Assembly (NCBI GenBank): GCA_951406725.2
Contig: OX597824.1
Coordinates: forward strand, 5,146,001 to 5,210,000
DNA length: 64,000 bases
Direction of reading: 5' to 3'
Source: Octopus vulgaris
Lineage: Eukaryota
Positions 7,766 to 55,591 of this stretch are shown here, piece by piece. The notes beneath the pieces were generated by a model. That model was not told where the DNA came from. It did no database searches and was given only the letters and a program-made list of their open reading frames with translations. A program made the translations under genes and the position numbers. Positions within the stretch are counted from its first letter, which is position 1, and each line of letters starts with the position of its first letter.

Positions 7766-7973
7766 TCTTATACTCTTTTACTCTTTTACTTGTTTCAGTC
7801 GTTTGACTGTGGCCATGCCGGAGCACCGCATTTAGTCGAGCAAATCGACCCCAGGACTTATTCTTTGTAAGCCTAGTACTTATTTTATCGGTCTCTTTTT
7901 GCTGAACCACTAAGTTACGGCGGACATAAACACACCAGCATCGGTTGTCAAGCGATGTTGGGGAACAAACTCA

Positions 7974-8070
<97 letters not shown>

Positions 8071-8254
8071 ATATATATATATACATATACACGACAGGGC
8101 TTCTTTCAGTTTCCGGCTACCAAATCCACTGACAAGGCTTTGGTCGACCCGAGGCTATAGCAGAAGACTCTTCCCAATGTGCCACGCAGTGGGACTGAAC
8201 CCGGAACCATGTGGTTGGTAAACAAGCTACTTACCACGCAGCCACTCCTACGCC
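7766..8254 (-). mobile_element. full-length SINE family A (tRNA head, CORE-like domain, internal microsatellite; possibly OR2-related)
   Basis: A box TGGCTGCGTGG, B box GGTTCAGTCCC and tail GCATGGCCACAGTCAAACGACTGAAACAAGTAAAAGAG. More than 10 copies in the window. Confidence 0.92.
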
Positions 8255-8808
8255 TATGCAGCTTTTTTTCTGATCTCTTCCCTCTGTGTGTCAGTACTTC
8301 AATCTACTTGTCGTCTGTTCGTATCTGATTTCGTTGAGAACCGATTGACCTACAAATGACGACTGAATCAATAAGTGACGGCCATTGATGACCGACTTTT
8401 GGTCCCAAGAGAAACTTGTGAAAAAAATTAATAAGGTTGCACCCCAGCATGGCCGCAGTCTAATAACTGAAACGAATAAAGGATTATAAGGTGAAACAAA
8501 TAATTGGATCCATCTTACCAAATTCTTCGTCAATCTGAGCAACTTTAATCAAACTCATCAACTATTTAAGCAGGAAAGCATTGCAGACGGAGAAAGGCAA
8601 CTCAAACGGTAAACACAAAGATTTATTTAATATTCTGTTTGATATTTAAAGTCCAAAACGAACACGCACTTACTTTTCTTTTCATTGCCATCGTTAACTA
8701 AAATTTCCGTTTTATTGAAGATGGTTTTTGTGCACCCCACCACCGTTCGATTCACAGAAATCCGCATACATACATACATACATACATAAACACACCTCCT
8801 GCGCACGC

Positions 8809-8989: not shown

Positions 8990-9587
8990 CAAAAGAAAAA
9001 TAAGTAAAATCTTTGAAGGCAAACAATTAACCGCGAACGATGGAAAACCAACGCTGAAATAAAGTTTCATCAAACTAATTTATAATAAAGAAGAAATGGA
9101 ACTACTTAGCGAAATAACAAATTATTTTGCGAGTCATGTTTGTTGTTTGGTTTCGAGAAACAAACTGTTTGGAAAGATAAAGGTTAGAATGATTTAAATA
9201 TTTTACATATGACTACGATAAGACACGACCGTTCTCACAGACATAGAATCCGCACTGGATCTTCAAATATGTGGAAATGTTCGCACAGAGTTACAACGAG
9301 ATGCAAATAAAAGACAATAACATTGAAATTAAATGCAACAGAATTATTCTTTGAAGATTGGATGATGCATTTAGTGTTTTAGGTCGCTGGGTCAATTTTA
9401 ATCCAAAGTATCCCCAAGTCGTGGGAATTGGAGTGGCTGTATGGTAATAGCTTGCTTACCAACCACATATGGTTCCGGGTTCAGTCCCACTGTGTGGCAC
9501 CTTGGGCAAGTGTCTTCTACTATAGCCTCGGGTCAACCAAATCCTTGTGAGTGGATTTGGTAGACGGAAACTGAAAGAAGCCCGTCG

Positions 9588-9646
<59 letters not shown>

Positions 9647-11350
9647 TTGCGTGCTCGTGTTTATTCCCCCGCCAACATCGTTTGACAACCGATCCTGGTG
9701 TGTTTACGTCCGCGTAACTTAGCGGTTCGGAAAAAGAGATCGATAGAATAAGTACTAGGCTTAGAAATAATAAGTCCTGGGTTCGATTTGCTCGACTAAA
9801 GGCGGTGCTCCAGCATGGCCGCAGTCAAATACCTGAAACAAGATAAAGAGTAATAAAAAAGAATAACTCTTATAGTTAGTCAGTAAAAATGATGAAAAAC
9901 TGACCCAAGAAAAAATAATAAATGATATGCCCTTATTTTGCTTGGGTCTCTCAAACAGGATTCAAAATCATTTAATTGGTGCTATTCGAAAAGTAATGTT
10001 GAATGAAATAGAAAATTAAGTTAAACAGGCGAAAGTTGTTGCTATTCTGAGAGACGAAACGTCCGAGGCATCGAACTCTTTGCAATTGTCAATTGCTTTG
10101 TGTCATGTTACAAAAGATTGCGTGCCTAAAAAAATCAATTTATCAGTCTTTAACGTTGTTAGAGGTCAGTGCAGACCATTCAGCAAACATTTTATCCCAA
10201 CAGGTTTTTAAATGCATTGAAATGTAGAAGTGTGAACACAAATTGATGGCACAGAGCGGTGCTGTTACAACGGCTGGATAATTAAATAGGTTGCGGTCAA
10301 CTAAATTCAGTTCCTTCACAAATATTCTCTGCTATAAAAGGATGCAAAATGTTTTTTTCTGCAATAAACGGACTGGGTATGTTTTTTACGAACTCATTTA
10401 ATAGTGCCAATGCGTTATATTGCATTGTTTAAAAAAGAATTCTCAAAATAGCAGCAAATAGGTGGAATTGGCATTCACGTCTCATTAATACTACAAAAGA
10501 AAATTGCAATTTCCTGATTACTCTTTCTGAAGACATTATTGAGAAGTCTGAAGCATGAGATGCGACAAACTATAAATTCTACAAAAGAATTCTTCTGTAA
10601 TTTCGTGGCTTTATTTTCCTTTCCTGATGTCATATGTAACATTATTTAAACTAAAAGACTCGATACTCTGTATTATGAAGAGCAGATAAAACTAGAAACG
10701 TGCAAGAAAATAAAGTGGACAGTTTTTTTCTGTTTTATGGAATGCTATAGGGAAAATATGATATTGATTGTAGAGGTCCAAATTAAGAATCCAGGGATAA
10801 ATCTATTGACCCACAACAGCATTATAGAATACTCTATAACAAAATTATAGGCGCAGTAATTAACCAATTAAAATCAAGGTACTCATCATTAGAAGAGCTT
10901 AAATTCATGGAAATTTTCGATTTTAACAAAGCTGAATGTTATTGCACCCAGTAAATGCATTAAATTCTTTAAGTGACTTTCGTTTACTGAATTAACTAAA
11001 TTCTATATATTCACTGGAAAATTTTAAAAAGCGAATTGTATGTAGTTTAATACTTCACATTTATATCAATGATCTTATTGATGCCATGCAAGAACTCTCT
11101 TCAATCTTTGTAACTTGATTTTCGCAATTCATCCTGCAACAGCCTCTGTGGGGTGGTTTTTCTTTGGCATTGAAGCAACATCTACAAAAGAAAAGACTTT
11201 CCAGAAAGAAAAGACTTTCAACATCTTTTGTTGGTCTTAGATGTCTTTTGAAAATCGGTCAACATCACAAGAGTTTAAATAAAAATTACTGTCGCTGGCA
11301 GCAATTTTTTTTTGGAGGGAAAACAAAGATGTATGATGGCGAAACTGTTT
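8990..11350 (+). mobile_element. decayed hAT transposase (ZMYM1/TTF-zinc-finger type), interrupted by a SINE
   Basis: KLFCESCLLF...VW...RH (TTF finger), IQNHLI...AILRDETSEAS..QLSIAL (DUF4371 catalytic D region) and PATASV...ALK (dimerisation domain), with many stops and frameshifts. Confidence 0.85.
9428..9855 (+). mobile_element. full-length SINE family A
   Basis: Near-identical to the other family A copies. Inserted in the hAT relic. Confidence 0.92.
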
Positions 11351-14993: not shown

Positions 14994-16178
14994 TTTTTTT
15001 TTCTTCTTTCAAATTTTCTTCCATTTCTTGCCGAGTGTCTTCCCGACTCCTAGGGCAAAGAAACTCATAGTGTATATTGGTAGGCCATTAAACCAAACTC
15101 AGTAGTTCGTTCATTTTTTTTTTTTTTTTTTTTTTTTAAAGTTAAATTAAAATACATGAGCAGCAACAGTTCTCACATCGACAATGCTCTTCTCAATACG
15201 TGTGATGTACCAGTTAAGACAATCTTTTGCACTTCTTGCAGGGATGGTAAGCCAGGGATCATTCTCATATAATTTTCGGTTCCCTTCTTGATCATTCCTA
15301 GTGCTCCTACGATCACTGGTATTGTAACCGCCTTGAGATGCCACATTTTCTCAATTTCAATGAGTAGGTCTTTATATTTTCTGAGCTTGTCAAACTCTTT
15401 CGCTGAGATATTATGATCACAGGGGATGCTCATGTCGATCAATAAGCAAACTTTATTGTTTTGGTCTTTCACAACAATATCTGGTTTATTGGCCTTGATG
15501 GTTCGGTCTGTATGTACTGGAAAGTCCCACAGAATGGTTACATTTTCTCCTTCAGTTACAGCCTCAGGGTGGTGATTATACCACTTGTCGGCAGTTTTGA
15601 TATTGTAATGCCGACTTATTAGCCAGTGGAGATATTGGCCAACTCTGTCATGTCTTAATTTATACTCCACTGGTGCTAAGACTTTACATCCAGAGATTAG
15701 GTGGTCCACTGTTTCAATCATGTCGTTGCAGAATCGGCATTTTGGGTCTGCTCCATTTTTCATCACATTGGCCTGGTAGTTCCGGGTTAATAGGCTTTGG
15801 TCTTGAGCAGCCAGGATGAAACCTTCGCTCTCTGCTTTTAGCCCTGAGCTCCGCAGCCACTGATGGGTTTGCTTCTGGTCAACATCAGCTTGTTTGCTGC
15901 GGGTCACATATTTGCCGTGCAGAGGTTTCTCCTCCCACCTATCAGCCAATTGCTCGTGCGCTTTTTTCATTGCCATCATTTTCACCTTCTTTGCAACAAT
16001 AGTTGCCGTACTTCCCTCGGGTTGTTCAGTTTGGGTATCCTGCACGAGATCAATAGCAAATTTTTTTTTCCTTGATGATAGAATGAAGCTTCTTTCGTCT
16101 CTCGTGATTTTCCACGAGCTTTAGCATCCAGTCATTCGATATTTCGAGATATTTGGCCAGTCCAATTGTGGTTGTTTT

Positions 16179-23775: not shown

Positions 23776-23931
23776 CTGGCTCTATGGTAAGACGCTTGCT
23801 TCCCAACCACATGGTTCCGGGTTCAGTCCCACTGCGTGGCACCTTGTGCAAGTGTCTTCTCTACTATAGCCTCGGGCCGACCAAAGCCTTGCGAGTGGAT
23901 TTGGTAGACGGAAACTGAAAGAAGCCCGTCC

Positions 23932-24012
<81 letters not shown>

Positions 24013-24199
24013 TTGTCCCCCACCATTGCTACACAACCGATGTCCCCGTTACTTAGCGGTTTGGCAAAAGAGACAGATGGAATAAGTACTAAGCTTACAA
24101 AGAATAAGTCCTGGGGTCGATTTCGTCGACCAAAGGAGGTGTTCCAGCATGGCCGCAGTCAAATGACTGAAACAAGTAAAAGAGTGAAAGAATAAAAGA

Positions 24200-24200
<1 letters not shown>
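23776..24200 (+). mobile_element. SINE family A
   Basis: Head, CORE-like domain and tail are all present. Confidence 0.9.
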
Positions 24201-24271
<71 letters not shown>

Positions 24272-32562: not shown

Positions 32563-32953
32563 CTTTATTTACTCTTTTACTTGTTCCAGTCGTTTGACTG
32601 CGGACATGCTGGAGCACCGCCTTTAGTCGAGCTAATTGAGCCCCAAGACTTATTCTTTGTAAGCCTAGTACTTATTCTATCGGTCTTTTTTGCGGAACCG
32701 CTACGTTACTGGGACGTAAACATACCAGAATCAGTTAATCAAGCGACGTTGGGGGGGACAAACACAGACACACAAACACACATATACATATATACGACGG
32801 GCTTCTTTTCAGTTTCCGTCTACCAAATCAACTCACAAGGCTTTGGTCGGCCCGAGGCTATAGTAGAAGACACTTGCCCAAGGTGCCACACAGTGGGACT
32901 GAACCCGGAACCATGTGGTTGGTAAGCATGCTACTTACCACACAGCCACTCCT
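32563..32953 (-). mobile_element. full-length SINE family A
   Basis: Close match to the other copies. Confidence 0.92.
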
Positions 32954-34095
32954 ATTTACTTAATGTTGTAATTTTAGTTTAGACACGAACAATTATTTTC
33001 GCATTAATTTCTGTTGAGACACTCAAACGTTTGTGTCTTTAGAGAAATTGGTAAGAAATTGAGAGCTGAGCAGTTCTAATTTCGTGACCGCTCGTGGCGT
33101 GATTATAACCAAGACACATTACGCTGATGTGTTTCACCGATTTGCAAATAGACACAAGACAGGCAGATCAATATTTTGAGCAGACAGGGAATTGCCTAAT
33201 TTGCGATTTGTTTTCTCAGAAGATTTGGTCCGAAATTACTTTAGGTGTCTGGATAAAGTAATAAGCAATATCAGGTTTCCTCGAGGGACCCTAAGAGAAT
33301 CACGTGAGCTAGCCATGTACGCAAGTCACAGAGGTAGCACATGATTTTTTCGTTAAATCTCTCATAACTTTCACAAATATTTCTAAAAAGCAATTTAGAA
33401 AATAACACATTTTTCTACTTGTTGTATCAAAACTAACTGCCATTTAGTCAGGTAAATATACACACCTATTTGTTTGCTCTTAAAAAATAGAAAAAAGTAC
33501 AACAGTCTACAATATCTAATATTTCATATTTACAAGTGATGTGTCAACTTGTTTATGATGAAAAAATTACCAGCAATGTTTGGTGAAGATACCTAGAAAT
33601 TTAATATGTTTTTCCGTTCAGTTCTTCATAATTTATTTAGAATATGACGTGTCATCAGATAATGTTCTATATAATAGCTGACAACATAGGAAAATCATCA
33701 AAAATCTGACAGATTATCAAATAAATAAGATTCAAGGAAGAACTGCTGTTTTTCTACTATCAAATATATCATATCGAGTTATGTAGGAATAAATGTATAT
33801 TTAAACATCCACAATTCAGTTATATTTTTTAATTCAATAACATCATATTTAAGTATGCACAGCGAGCCGTCACTCCCGAGCGAGTATGGATTGGTAGCAT
33901 AGCATACACCAGGCTTTAACTAGGTGTTTTAGGTGCATATGATGTCGTGAGCAGACATTCACCCCTCTCGCCCTTCTCTCCACTGATCTGTGGCACAGTT
34001 GGAAAAGAAAAGAGTTAGATAGATCGATATATATATATACGTGATCAAATTAAAATCAAGAAAATGGAGAAGTAGCGTTATTATAATTTATTAAC

Positions 34096-34234: not shown

Positions 34235-34791
<557 letters not shown>

Positions 34792-34921
34792 ATAAAAAGA
34801 ATTCCAACCTTGTCTGATTTTCACGTTTTATTTACAATCTTATAATGATATATTATAAGATAATATATTATAATTGAATAAAATAAAATGAAATAGTAGA
34901 ATGTTAAATATTCATTCTGAT

Positions 34922-38613: not shown

Positions 38614-39180
38614 TACATATATATATACATATATATATATGTATGGATATATATATATATATATATATATATAAACAAAGTCAAAATGCGATAAAATAAA
38701 ATTAATTATTATCGCTGGTGTTTCTAGCATATATATATATGTATATATATATATACACACACACACACAATGGAACAAGTTGTTAAGGGCGCTTTCAGTG
38801 TCAGACGGTGGAATGATTTTGCTGTCGCCTCAAGTGCCACAGGGCACAACGAGGTTTCGCGTTACTAAAACATATTGGAATGCATCTCTAAACACATACA
38901 TATGTATACATACAACATATACACACATACACACACCTAAACACACACGCACATACATATATAGCTAAACACACACACTCACCAATAGAAATTGTTTTGT
39001 ATTCATTTTATCACGAAGCTATTCAACGGTCGATTTCGGATTTCGGGTGCATAGTCATCAACTCTTCTTACACTGTATAGATTAAATGTGTACATTGAAT
39101 GCGTCAAATAACGCATTTTGTGTTGATGTTACGGAGATGTACTTGCATAGCAAGTGACCTGATCTGAGATCGTGTGCTGA

Positions 39181-39469
39181 AACAAAAGCAATTGCAGCAT
39201 GGAAGATGTTTACAAGCCTTTTAAAAACACACAAAAACCGTTAGATTCACTTCAACATTTAAATTTAATTTGTCAAAATGTTTGCGGCGCTTTGAGACCA
39301 CGACCTGTCCACTGAGGTGCAGATTGGAATTTTGTCAGTGAACAGGTCGCGGGGTCAAAGCGACGAAAACATTTTGACAAATTAAGTTTAAATGTTGAAG
39401 TGAATCTAACGGTTTTTGTGTATTTTTAAATGGCTGATAAACACATTCCACGATGCAGTTGCTTGTGTT
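39181..39469. repeat. long foldback palindrome (about 135-bp arms, 19-bp spacer)
   Basis: CACAAAAACCGTTAGATTCACTTCAACATTTAAA is mirrored by TTTAAATGTTGAAGTGAATCTAACGGTTTTTGTG. Confidence 0.92.
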
Positions 39470-40530
39470 GATGTTGTTGTTGTTTAATACTAGGTCAGCC
39501 TTGGTGAAACAGACTTATCTATAGCCACAGAAATTCTAGACCATACCATACTATTTTTTTAAGTGGCATAGTGTACCTATGACTCTATGATCTTTGTATA
39601 CTTTCTTCCCTTTCTTAAGGCGACAGAGTTTGTGATTTCAGAATGATTTGGTTGTTGCTTTTTGCAGATCAAGCGATTAGAGTACGAGTGAGGAAGACTT
39701 TTTTTTTATACCTTATCAAGTATGTAGGAACCGACGGAGGGGTATCTGAACCGAGAAAAATAATGCAGCCTTAAGTTTACAAATTCATATGTATGCACAT
39801 GGTCTGATTGAGCAGCATTAATTAAATTCTAACAATGCATTAATTAACCAGTTAGTTAAAATACATCAAATATCGAAGCACCAAACGAGCTCCAAGATAC
39901 ATTTTTTAAAGATGTTCAGAAACTTTAATTTGCATCTTAATGAGAAGACCTGCTGTTTTAGTTAGGTCAGACGAGAAAGATCAATGCTTCAGTTCTTAAA
40001 TATTTTGTAAGGTGTTTGGGAGCGAGAAATTAATTTTTTGTAACTAAACACTTTCAAACTTCGGACACTGGTAGAATGCGTCATAGAAAACATCTTTTAC
40101 TCTTAGAGTTGTTGAGAAAAGTTTCTATTTTCAAAGTTATTTCCTGTTAAAGTTGTCGTATTTCGGTAATTTCAACAAATCAATGGCGTGTATTCAGCTG
40201 AATAAAATTACTGCTGTTGTTTGTCAACAACTTCCGGCGAAAAGATTCAAGGTTTGTAGTGTAACATGTAAATAATTTCAACTTAAATTTAGGCTCAAAG
40301 CCTGCTATGGACCTCAGTGCATACCTAGTTTTATTTTATCGAAATAAGGTTTAATTTTATCGAAATATGGCTAAGATCAGACAACTGACAAGCAAATCTG
40401 TGGTATTGAGCAGAATATTTGCTGTAGCCCATCTTTTATAACAAGACAAAACAATGTACATTAATAAAACTTCCAATCAGTTAAGATCAGAAGCCATGAG
40501 AGCCACTGTCTGGTACTACATCAGGGCATC

Positions 40531-40684: not shown

Positions 40685-41330
40685 AGATAGGAGCAAAGTG
40701 ATAAGATCATAAATTGATATAATAGAATGGAATTGGTATTTTATGCCATAGCAAGAATCGTACTGACGCAAATGCAAATTCGTTTTGACATATTTTACTG
40801 TTTACAATGTACAATTACACAAAAATAAGTCACGAGTGTTGGGGGGGCGTACTATACAACTTTACATATTGATGCCAACGCGAAACCTCAGTGTTTATAG
40901 TAACAACAGACTAATATTTGTAATTTGATGATTTGATTAATTTCTAAAATGTCGGAGACCCTCGTTTTGTTCATAGATTCTTTGTATATTTTTCTTTTGC
41001 CAGAGACTAGCTGTTGGAATCCAGCATATAAATATACTATCACGAAAAATAAAATTAGACTTTATCGATTATATTTTTTGTGCATTGGACTAAACAAATG
41101 ATATTAATGACTAAAAAAATTCTGGTTTGCTATTGTTATCTTTATAAATAAATTTTTTAAATGTTTTTGAAGGAACAGGACGAAAGTGCGAAGAGAATTA
41201 ATGGTGGATGGTGAATGCCATTCCCTTTAGAAGTGTATTCTTTTCATGTCTGAACTACTTTTATCTACTTTTTGTCAAATATAAGCGACTAGTATCTGCT
41301 AGGGAGTAGTTTTGAACATTCATCAATATA

Positions 41331-41495
41331 GGAGTAGGAGTTGCTGTGTGGTAAGTAGCTTGCTTACGAACCACATGGTTCCGGGTTCAGTCCCACTGCG
41401 TAGCACCTTGGGCAAGTGTCTTCTACTATAGCCTCGGGCCGACCAAAGACTTGTGAGTAGATTTTGTAGACGGAAACCGAAAGAAGCCCATCGTA

Positions 41496-41554
<59 letters not shown>

Positions 41555-41752
41555 GTGTGTGTGTTTCTGTGTCTGTGTTTGTCCCCCCCACAACATTGCT
41601 TGACAACCGATGCTGGTGTGTTTACATCCCCGTAACTTAGCGGTTCGGCAAAAGAGGCCGATAGAATATGTACTAGGCTTACAAAGAATAAGTCCTGGGG
41701 GCGATTCGCTCGACTAAGGGTGGTGCTCCAGCATGACCACAGGCAAATGACC
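41331..41752 (+). mobile_element. SINE family A
   Basis: Close match. Confidence 0.92.
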
Positions 41753-43083
41753 TAATTCATCCTTGCTGCGATCTTTCTGATTATTTTTCTGTTTGGTGTT
41801 TATTTTCAGTGAATATCGTTGAAAATGTTTCTTGGAGATAAAACTTTTGGTAATCCTACTGATTCCAAGCAACAATACACCGGAGACAATTTCCAATTGC
41901 GTTTTTCTATATGAACGAAAGGGTTTGATCCCAGCACTCTGCGGGTGAGCATAAAACGTGTAGTAAGCGGTATCGTCCTATAGCACCTAAGACACAGCTA
42001 AGTTCACCGAGTCATTGAAAATGAACCTGTTTTGGTACTGTGATTGGATGCAAAATATCAATTCACTCGATTTGCCGTTAATGATAACACGTGGTTTGAT
42101 AAGAGTAATTAGAAATCATAAGATTTTAAGTCTCAGTTCCACTGATCATAAATGTATGCTTTAAATCAATCTTCGTTAGTTGACAGCATACATAACAATC
42201 CTGTCTCCTTAAAACACTACCCGATTTCCTTACAACACGATCCTCCTATCGCTTTTTACAACACAATCCTGTCATCACAACCCACAGATCTCACGTTGAG
42301 GTCTTTATATAAAAACCTAGTCTTCTTGCAGCCAAATCTTCATCAAATCACACCATACTACCTCAAAGATCACTTCAATGAATGTAGTACTAGATGCATT
42401 ATACCCAAAAACAAATAAGACGAGAAGATCCCGACTGGAACGCCTTTGATTGTGGATCTGTTCAATGAAAACTGACCTGGGGAGAAATAATAACAACCAT
42501 CTTCTTACATCACAATCCTTGCCGCTGCCCTCATGATTATTAGAGCACAACCCTTAAAACCAATTTCCTTGCACGATATCCTTTCATTCCCAATACATCG
42601 TAACCATTAAAACGCACCCCTCTCTCCTTCACCACCCTCTCTTCTTCCTCCATCAACCCTCGTTCCTGCTCTTCATCGTCTGATTAAGCGATTTCAGTCT
42701 AGATCTCTAGATTATGCAGAAAACCGATATTAGAATGGATTTACCAACCTCATTCTAATATCCAATAATACTGATAACATAATTGATTTATCTAAGGAAT
42801 GTGCTGAGAAATCTCTGCAATAATTCACTTTATAATTAATCATATTTTATATAATCTCCAAGTTATATAATTAACAGTTTTATAACAAGTGATCTCTATC
42901 GGCGGATGTTCAAACCTATCAACTCAATGCAAGTTTGGAAGTATCTTCATGTTAGCACTCCGTAGCATTCATGCTTACAAAAAATGCATGCTTGCCACAA
43001 ATTCTAATTTCTCTGTAACATTTCTTCACAATAATTACGTATAACGAGTTGAGAAGCAATGTCGAGCTTCCACCTCCATGTTT

Positions 43084-43135
<52 letters not shown>

Positions 43136-43396
43136 AGAAAAGAGAGAGAGAGAATATGATGTCATAAGATTCAATTTTCGAAAACAACGGCAACATGAAT
43201 AAAGCTATTGTCAGGAATCGAAACCTTTTTGCGGACTTAAACGCCATTTCGGTTCTTGCATCGTAGGAATTAGTCGATAGAGTTGTACTGAATGGAATTG
43301 TACTGGATGGAGCAGTATTAGAACTGTGATTACTTAGAAAACTGGCTTTTTTACTAAGATAACTTGTATTACGGAAACATCTCTTACAACAGGAGA

Positions 43397-43786
43397 GGCG
43401 CAAGAATGGCTGTGTGGTAAGTAGCTTGCTTACCAGCAACATGGTTCTGGGTTCAGTTCCACTGCGTGGCACCTTGGGCAAGTGTCTTCAACTAGAGCCT
43501 CGAGCCGACCAAAGCCTTGTGAGTGGATTTGGTAAACGGAAACTGAAAAGAAGCCCGTCGTATATATGTATTTATATATATGTGTGTGTGTGTGTGTGTT
43601 TGTCCCCCCCTCCCCAACGATGCTGGTGTGTTTGTACGTGTAACTTAGCGGTTCGGCAAAAGAGACCGATAGAATAAGTACTAGGCTTACAAAGAATAAG
43701 TCCTGGGGTCGATTTGCTCGACTAAAGGCGGTGCTCCAGTATGGCCGCTGTCAAATGACTGAAACAAGCAAAGAGTAAAGTGAGTA
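43397..43786 (+). mobile_element. SINE family A
   Basis: Close match. Confidence 0.92.
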
Positions 43787-51515: not shown

Positions 51516-52253
51516 TGTATATATATATATCACATATGTATATATATATGCACGTAGATTTTTAGATACACTCAAATATATACATAGACATACATACATA
51601 CATACATATATATATGTATATATATATATATATGCATATATATTCTCTCCAAAACCATAAACTCTCATACACATATCTTCGTAGACTCGAATATCTATAC
51701 GTAACAAACGTTCATACATATTTGCATATGCATATCCATATTTATAAACACATAAAAACAACAACAACAACTAAAAGCCTTCAAAAGACGCACAGATAAG
51801 TATTGATTGCTTTCTTTTCATATTTATCGCTTATTTCATTAATATTTATGAGATTCAACAATGAATATATTGCTATTCCATATCACACGCTGGGCTTAGA
51901 GCGGCGTTGGGCAATTTAGTATAAGCGTTCAATTTAAGGCCAGATCTCACGACTGCTGTATGCTCAAGAGATTTCTACAGTTAATAATGCGTCCGCCCCG
52001 ATATCATAGGTATAGCTTCAATGCCATATAAACTTATATGGAGTTTCGAATCATAGAATCATATGCCTTGTAAGTTGATATAATTGGGGAAATAAAGATT
52101 CTGAATTCAAGAAGGTTGACCCTGCAGAAAAGCTGGCAAATACAGTTAGAGATACAAGTTAGAAGTGATTGCGAATATTCTTAAAATAACATATACACAA
52201 AGAAATTTATACACACACACACACACACACATATATATACATATATATATATA

Positions 52254-52495
52254 CCGGAGTAAGCACATAAATGTGAAACAAGGTGGAAAAAGAGTACTCA
52301 AATATCAGAGGTAGAGTAATATGCTTTATTTAAAAGCAGCAGAAATATAACAAAAGCTGTCCGACGAACGGGAACGTGAAACTCTGAGTAACAGCTTTTG
52401 TTATAATTCTGCTGCTTTTAAATGAAGCATATTACTCTACCTCTGGTATTTGAGTACTCTTTTTCCACCTTGTTTCACATTTATGGGCTTACTCC

Positions 52496-52497
<2 letters not shown>
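52254..52497 (+). mobile_element. 244-bp foldback element in (TA)n with a hammerhead motif as its loop
   Basis: 107-bp arms with 4 mismatches. The loop is 52361-52390. Confidence 0.9.
52357..52394 (+). ncRNA. type I hammerhead ribozyme motif (U4C core variant)
   Basis: CTGT-CCGACGA-ACG(GGAA)CGT-GAA-ACTC-T-GAGT-A-ACAG, with cleavage triplet GUA. Confidence 0.7.
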
Positions 52498-52541
<44 letters not shown>

Positions 52542-52763
52542 AAAAAATTTTCAGAATGAGATAAAGAACCAACGCTCTGAAAAAATCTTTTATTTCATTC
52601 TGAGAAACATTTTTTATATATACGCATGCTGATATATGACCTACGCTGGATTCCTCATTTGCATAATCACCGAACCTGGAGCTTAACTATGGTCTATCCA
52701 TAGTACTTACTCAGCATTACCTGGACACCTTTGGGTCTTAATGACACCATTGCCTCTCATAAC

Positions 52764-54785: not shown

Positions 54786-54911
54786 CTCCTTCTTTCTTTC
54801 CTTTCCTGAGCGTCCAATAACACTATACTTGTTCCACATCCTCGCGTTGTTGTCTTTTCATGTTTGGATTAACTTTATATATATACATACATACATACAC
54901 ACATATATATT

Positions 54912-55154
54912 CTTTTATTCTTTTACTTGTTTCAATCATTTGATCGGGGCCATGTTGGAGCACCGCCTTTTAGTCGAACAAGTTGACCCCTGGCCTTATT
55001 CTTTGTAAGCCTGGTATAATTCTATCGGTCTCTTCTACCGAACAGCTAAGTTACGATGACGTATACACACCAGCATCGGTTGTCAAGCAATGTGGTGTGG
55101 ACAAACACAGACACAAAGACATACATACATACATAATACATACATACATAAATA

Positions 55155-55224
<70 letters not shown>

Positions 55225-55388
55225 CGACAGGCTTCTTTCGGTTTCTGTCTACCACATCCACTCACAAGGCTTTGGTCGGCTCGAGGCTGCAGTAGACAAC
55301 ACTTGCCCAAGGCACCACGCAGTGGGACTGAACACGGGACCGCGTGGCTGGTAAGCAAGCTTTTTGCCACACAGCCGCTCCTGCACCC
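54912..55388 (-). mobile_element. SINE family A
   Basis: Full colinear match. Confidence 0.9.
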
Positions 55389-55591
55389 ATATATGTATAT
55401 ATGCATGTGTGTGTGTGTATGTTTATGCGCGCGCGTGCGTGTGTGTACGTGTGTATGCGTGTGGGTGTGTGTGCGTGCGTTTGCGTGTATGTGTGTGCAT
55501 GCATGTATATGTATGTACACATACTCATATACATATATATACATACATGCACACACATATAAATGCATACATACATACTTGCATACATACA

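Follow-up and report, generated by a model that had tools for sequence, protein, structure and literature searches.

Insertions of Penelope-like retroelements (PLEs) have been described as an inverted 5'-truncated copy with a one-sided tail (PMC8557442, PMC3846280), and in vitro work on a lizard (Anolis) PLE reports that two adjacent reverse-transcription start sites delimit the tail, that both strands are primed and that insertion proceeds without ribozyme activity (PMC11167929). The minimal type I hammerheads that Cervera and de la Pena (2014, PMC4209133) describe in PLEs have a short palindromic helix III suiting dimers and lie mostly in truncated copies, some of them closely paired on opposite strands. 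Within the PLEs, the Hydra clade of Craig et al. (2021, PMC8557442) is characterised there by RWK, DKT, CxCx5C, CxxC and CxH motifs and the absence of CCHH, by a terminal hammerhead and (TA)n targets, and by a tendency to stay below 3 kb. Metazoan non-LTR retrozymes, as described in PMC7229834 and bioRxiv 10.64898/2026.07.22.740005, consist of tandem monomers arranged head to tail, from which circular RNA is made. In the open-access literature we found no paper on the octopus element family reported here or on hairpins in which the ribozyme forms the exact loop.

The locus lies in a window of 64,000 nt of the Octopus vulgaris genome (contig OX597824.1, positions 5,146,001 to 5,210,000; 2.8 Gb in 227 contigs, microsatellite-rich). 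It resembles the retrozymes of those sources in being short, non-coding and PLE-related with a type I hammerhead, and differs from them in being a head-to-head inversion with one hammerhead, the single family match in the window. With described PLE insertions (PMC3846280; PMC8557442, Fig. 2; Anolis Poseidon, PMC11167929) it and its relatives share head-to-head inverted copies, palindromic or microhomology junctions, a tail that is mostly one-ended and AT-rich targets; the window copies depart from these in being cut to ~110–140 bp each and in carrying two tails. The head-to-head layout is already known for PLEs, and a single such hairpin is ordinary. A first-pass annotation of this DNA had taken the termini to be tail-to-tail; the 5' ends are in fact joined and the 3' ends point outward.

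The hairpin consists of two arms of 107 nt each, 52254–52360 and 52391–52497, that differ at exactly four positions (52265/52486, 52305/52446, 52327/52424 and 52345/52406) around a 30-nt hammerhead-type loop at 52361–52390. It is flanked on either side by TA/CA microsatellite, and the element targets (TA)n; arms, loop (apart from the core being a U4C variant, otherwise as described) and (TA)n insertion thus agree with the first-pass annotation. At each of the four mismatches one arm alone departs from the majority letter of the family, and no editing signature was seen among them (A-to-G in 1/4). The folding energy is -193 kcal/mol (z = -35.5), which was equalled by 0 of 200 shuffles. None of the contigs from the sequencing runs spans the flanking microsatellites, and the unique left flank is covered in one of four runs. 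We numbered the element from C3 of the hammerhead (52361 = 0), so that predicted cleavage follows +29, and assigned the following features:

52208..52253, no strand: CA/TA microsatellite, left target flank (from the sequence)
52254..52323, minus strand: optional 70-bp tail of the inverted PLE copy, +67 to +136; its outer end is an element 3' terminus
52324..52360, minus strand: inverted 5'-truncated PLE copy, +30 to +66 (stem I 3' strand to short terminus)
52357..52360, no strand: 4-bp junction microhomology (from comparison with the natural upstream sequence of family copies)
52361..52390, plus strand: minimal type I hammerhead of the PLE pseudo-LTR, predicted cleavage after 52390; core 52361–52367 (U4C), 3-bp stem II with GNRA loop 52368–52377, GAA 52378–52380
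52381..52389, plus strand: palindromic stem III of the hammerhead
52391..52427, plus strand: direct PLE copy, +30 to +66, where +66 is the short terminus
52428..52497, plus strand: 70-bp tail of the direct copy, equivalent to the 5' leader in intact elements
52498..52538, no strand: (TA)n, right target flank (from the sequence)

The four bases of microhomology are common to the inverted copy and to the natural 5' strand of the direct copy's stem I. At +136 the element adjoins (TA)n in tailed copies and continues into the ORF leader in intact ones, where the tail sequence stops ~70 nt before the ATG.

As a ribozyme the window core (CCGACGA, the U4C variant), whose stems II and III are weak, should by prediction fold poorly on its own. 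Stem II has 3 bp, is closed by A-U and lacks G10.1-C11.1; in the monomer stem III has 3 bp with a 3-nt loop (a 1-nt loop cannot close) and pair probabilities of ~0.1. The full hammerhead fold of the monomer has a computed P of 0.015, neither the MFE nor the centroid structure contains it, and an Rfam scan of the window gave 0 matches at the gathering score. Two stem III palindromes pair with each other at -9.9 kcal/mol as a self-duplex, and such pairing as a dimer is the pattern of the dimer-type ribozymes in PMC4209133. U4C is a trait of the older subfamily, present in 89 of 100 core matches listed (scored by eye), and the change is reported to reduce activity in vitro (PMC3088659). The ribozyme of the young intact family has the canonical U4, but an A-A mismatch closes its stem II. 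On these predictions the window hairpin RNA alone would cleave poorly. Set against the hammerheads described in PMC4209133, the octopus ribozyme shares the type I order of parts, the dimer-suited palindromic helix III and the placement in truncated copies and in close opposite-strand pairs, and departs in a helix II of just 2–3 bp without the usual G10.1-C11.1 and in the U4C of its older subfamily.

Walking upstream from family copies led through a ~1.2-kb (1.26-kb) 3' UTR into a decayed RT-endonuclease ORF, and a protein search with a piece of that ORF returned many near-identical open frames of 727 codons. At eight of nine intact loci the window loop and right arm (95–244 of the hairpin) are 87–88% identical to the pseudo-LTR directly before the intact frame, while the ninth carries tail and short end separately. 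Identity rises to 91–93% against older copies joined via the 3' UTR to decayed ORFs (L133, L151), and because of this difference we place the window copy in an older, decayed sister subfamily. The match to a PLE end that the first-pass annotation had suspected was thereby found, at 87–93% identity to a PLE pseudo-LTR. No intact ORF of the window's own subfamily appeared among 150 scored matches; at the protein level the intact family reaches ~66% identity over the part searched. The nine intact ORFs (L142–L150) differ by 1–19 of 2,181 nt, and the intact elements end 3' of the ORF in pseudo-LTR sequence, short or tailed, often with inverted truncated partners. These young intact Hydra-clade elements stand in tandem and inverted arrays (e.g. 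L144:1461–3641), with a repeat unit of ~3.35 kb in L144.

The parent has a single 711-aa ORF with an RT core plus, at the C terminus, an endonuclease of the GIY-YIG type (D..DFYP, MG...G, YRDD, GVVY...YTG). Its protein contains RWK, DKT, YRDD, a CxCx5C linker, CxxC and CxH, has no cysteines within GIY-YIG and lacks CCHH; the motif cysteines are conserved at 98–100% in 117 aligned homologs. Only one of its 1,072 homologs has a Pfam GIY-YIG match, the intact protein and the decayed ORF fragments each matched 0 Pfam families, and PDB sequence searches with the intact protein gave no significant match. Judged by motifs rather than by a tree, the parent belongs to the Hydra clade of C-terminal endonuclease PLEs, and the parent family agrees with that clade in having a pseudo-LTR hammerhead and in inserting into (TA)n. 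The supplement of PMC8557442 contains two published Hydra-clade sequences (identified by their order in the file) whose final letters are those of stem III and stem I here. Hydra-1_Obim from Octopus bimaculoides differs in hammerhead and N-terminus in that supplement and so is another family; on these sequences we regard the O. vulgaris element as a new family member of the Hydra clade. Its ~3.35-kb unit exceeds the <3 kb that is the general tendency in PMC8557442, and it differs from the Hydra elements described there in having pseudo-LTRs and very young intact copies. Such a young family provides a usable system for work on the mechanism of this class of retroelements.

Two side observations concern the parent. 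Just before stem I of the intact element, a pyrimidine run ending in AG (L144:1284–1294) looks like a splice acceptor, at the spot corresponding to the end of the Drosophila Penelope intron (PMC4209133); no spliced joint before stem I was found in the sequencing-run contigs. At L029 (1–1570) a family 3' end (-345 to +71) adjoins a decayed ORF of a different PLE-like type, in what is either a nested insertion or a chimera. We had considered that ORF as the parent and dropped it, as only 3 of 25 relatives matched the hairpin at all.

The hammerhead core has 942 exact matches genome-wide. Exact matches to the arm ends number at least 2,896 for a 27-nt older pattern and at least 3,134 for a 30-nt young variant, together >6,000 as lower bounds, and reversed controls gave 0. 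Downstream of the ribozyme the copies stop at +66 or, 70 bp further on, at +136, adjoining (TA)n; among the first 100 older matches 48 ends were short and 52 tailed, as typed by a pattern letter with a few mistyped. Upstream (5') limits vary, as do the inner junctions, many of which are asymmetric or have extra bases. At the short terminus (e.g. L160, L185, L202, L219) the bases that follow look like the TA target, a likeness that hints at priming via short pairing with the target; the first tail base is kept before the TA run in 4 of 100 arms. For arrangement we took the 84 sites on contig C1 behind the first 100 older matches (BLAST). Head-to-head pairs were present at 50 of them, and 49 of these 50 pairs combine one short with one 70-bp-tailed end; the remaining 34 sites have a single arm or another layout. 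At L234 a second pair is present, two-tailed. When 30 pairs were typed at four diagnostic sites, 19 had identical subfamily types in both arms, as against a mean of 4.3 and a maximum of 11 after shuffling, which indicates that both arms of a pair usually derive from one source. At L002 (1501–1743) lies a two-tailed hairpin with a near-exact loop whose arms have different subfamily letters (by eye); this suggests two templates or recombination.

We are confident, short of certainty, that the window hairpin is one Hydra-clade PLE insertion that left two short head-to-head end copies in a TA repeat, two cDNAs having likely been joined via stem I. The observations behind this are direct: both arms and the loop match a PLE end, the two outer termini are fixed and lie 70 bp apart, inner junctions vary, targets are TA and the genome contains intact parents. 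A PLE enzyme would likely copy one RNA onto both cut target strands, the RT-endonuclease presumably cutting (TA)n and beginning reverse transcription at +66 and +136, in the manner reported in vitro for the lizard PLE. With priming at the start-site copy near the RNA 5' end, the cDNAs would run out after ~80–155 nt; such short cDNAs could be joined at any short complementarity, and here may have annealed via stem I of the ribozyme itself, which in the parent is naturally an imperfect helix of ~10–13 bp. As the inverted copy, read inward, ends in the letters of the stem I 5' strand, a join at stem I leaves a hairpin loop that is exactly the core, with its boundary at the cleavage site. Any join inside stem I would place the site there; the position of predicted cleavage at the arm boundary, given in the first-pass annotation, is a consequence of geometry. 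The window case would combine two uncommon events, both primings at the outer site and a join in stem I, and its copy would be a dead-end product of the older subfamily that has since gained four private mutations. Several points run counter to this account: the copy is tailed at both ends, unlike 49/50 sampled pairs, its tail is 70 bp against a published 30–40 bp, the scored matches include no intact ORF of its own subfamily, the parent protein matched nothing in Pfam or the PDB, and the arms of L002 differ in subtype.

To gauge how unusual the loop is, we took a census of junctions genome-wide by exact matches with one fixed left context. It returned 1,145 arms that run into their own ribozyme, 13 that join the opposite core via longer microhomology and 2 that are window-like. 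The 15 exact-loop sites carry the tail on the left (8), on the right (6, one assigned by eye) or, at the window only, on both sides, and their junctions occur in several subfamilies. The loop thus occurs in both polarities among copies, not in the single one anticipated. With exact loops in ~1% of arms and double tails in ~1–2% of pairs, the two would be expected together at roughly one to a few loci in the genome, and this fits what we observe. Most likely, then, the exact ribozyme loop is a rare joining accident among thousands of stubs.

The same PLE parent could also have produced the hairpin from a single cDNA that folded back at stem I and primed itself, or from a palindrome with two hammerheads that lost its centre between stem I repeats. 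We regard this as rather unlikely, even though fold-back predicts perfect symmetry with two tails and the paired arms of the family agree in subtype and length class. Palindromic junctions have been read as self-priming (PMC3846280), and centre-deleted palindromes exist at L005 and L019. Fold-back alone leaves the unlike outer ends of 49/50 pairs unexplained unless trimming came later, and the same proviso applies to the eight exact-loop cases in which the inverted arm is longer than the direct one; the many asymmetric or base-added junctions also speak against it. From sequence alone, joining of two cDNAs, fold-back of one and later loss of a palindrome centre cannot be separated.

That the left arm was copied from hammerhead-cut RNA, so that the genome records cleavage in the cell as the +30 junction, is improbable. 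The inverted copy does end between +30 and +34, and the cleavage product is predicted to have its 5' end at +30. The 5' ends of arms are, however, not enriched there (0/100 older arms at +28 to +33 and 1/101 young arms at +28 to +34), stem I junctions with longer microhomology outnumber the window type 13 to 2, and in the experiments reported in PMC11167929 the main substrate was uncut RNA and no reads ended at the cleavage site.

The first-pass annotation had proposed a non-coding mobile unit: a non-autonomous hairpin retrozyme whose transcript self-nicks and which a PLE enzyme mobilises as a whole. Such a unit would have termini for a PLE enzyme to recognise on both strands, and a few other two-tailed hairpins are known (L002–L006, L019). 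Those differ in junctions and subtypes, only one of the 15 exact-loop hairpins has two tails, and the copies sampled include no tandem monomers, which define non-LTR retrozymes in PMC7229834. The hammerhead fold is moreover improbable by the computation above, and U4C weakens in vitro activity in PMC3088659. The loop varies among copies, an outcome that had been named in advance as speaking against a retrozyme, and its exact form accounts for 2 + 13 junctions against 1,145 arms; we consider the proposal very unlikely. What survives of the mobility reading is a retro-derived, PLE-related and non-MITE origin, the arms being the end of an RT element; a hairpin moving as its own unit does not. Finally, a MITE derived from a cut-and-paste DDE transposon whose terminal inverted repeats are long, to which the long inverted arms, TA context and many copies might point, has next to no chance of being right, as the arms belong to the end of an element coding for an RT-endonuclease, the ends are of two lengths, 34/84 sampled sites have no inverted partner, and the uniformity of a MITE fails on 49/50 pairs with unlike ends and on variable junctions.

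The 5' ends of the PLE arms are distributed non-randomly. In the older subfamily 46/100 end at -18 to -7 and 11 beyond -20, in a mapping where the aligner stops early in long diverged arms and two inverted arms were misread. For 101 young arms, 60 end at -29 or closer and 26 at -11 to -19, a single arm stops between -30 and -172, and 40 arms are long. Per base, arms stop at a rate of 0.041 at -11 to -19 versus 0.0002 beyond -30. Young pairs fall into 27 mini-mini, 11 long-long and 1 borderline (by eye; binomial p = 2e-8); 20/61 young loci have no scored partner, and one locus is a tiny stub beside a long copy. The pile-up 11–19 nt before the ribozyme is likely the RNA's start, and would be explained most simply if reverse transcription, primed at the leader start-site copy, ran off the 5' end of a transcript that had not been cut. 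A motif that we take to be initiator-like puts an A at -16/-17 of the element. Two single contigs of run X5 carry a putative template-switch adapter, near the core and by the short terminus; as single contigs they are given no weight here. A similar picture would arise from an RT stop caused by cDNA folding at stem I, or from AT-rich microhomology. The analogy with Drosophila Penelope is loose because its start lies further upstream, before the intron (PMC2377424). The sharp pile-up gives a testable handle on the role of the PLE hammerhead and on the origin of inverted structures.

More tentatively, and with more doubt than confidence, the thousands of 80–155-nt stubs may be run-off products instead of random truncations, made when the PLE enzyme primes at its start-site copy near the 5' end of an uncut linear transcript that starts ~16–17 nt before the hammerhead; long copies would come from RNA that is in tandem or has been circularised by the hammerhead. 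In that case the choice between a dead-end mini-hairpin and a full copy would fall to the ribozyme, the weakened (U4C) subfamily would make more minis, and the young family would turn out double-stranded RNA hairpins in quantity within a heavily edited transcriptome. Read-through transcription of the window hairpin would yield a long duplex. For octopus, PMC5625713 describes abundant predicted double-stranded RNA as well as hyper-editing, and thousands of hairpins could add putative ADAR-edited double-stranded RNA.

Other repeats in the window were noted in passing. At 39129–39470 lies a member of another asymmetric hairpin family, laid out like the hammerhead one (arms of ~125 bp, a one-sided extension of ~60 bp, a variable loop and AT-rich flanks); it has 2,865 candidates in the genome, and we recognised no hammerhead in it. 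A further high-copy repeat at 52610–52750, 110 bp to the right of the hammerhead hairpin, has high contig depth and an octamer-like motif. On the minus strand, a 315-aa open frame at 15173–16120 resembles the C-terminal portion of a non-LTR retrotransposon; its zf-RVT match is weak and falls short of the Pfam cut-off. Lastly, a ~400-bp interspersed repeat, which we take to be SINE-like, recurs in copies 68–88% alike at 7769–8257, 9430–9865, 23777–24243, 32568–32956, 34337–34793, 41326–41753, 43396–43786 and 54868–55402.
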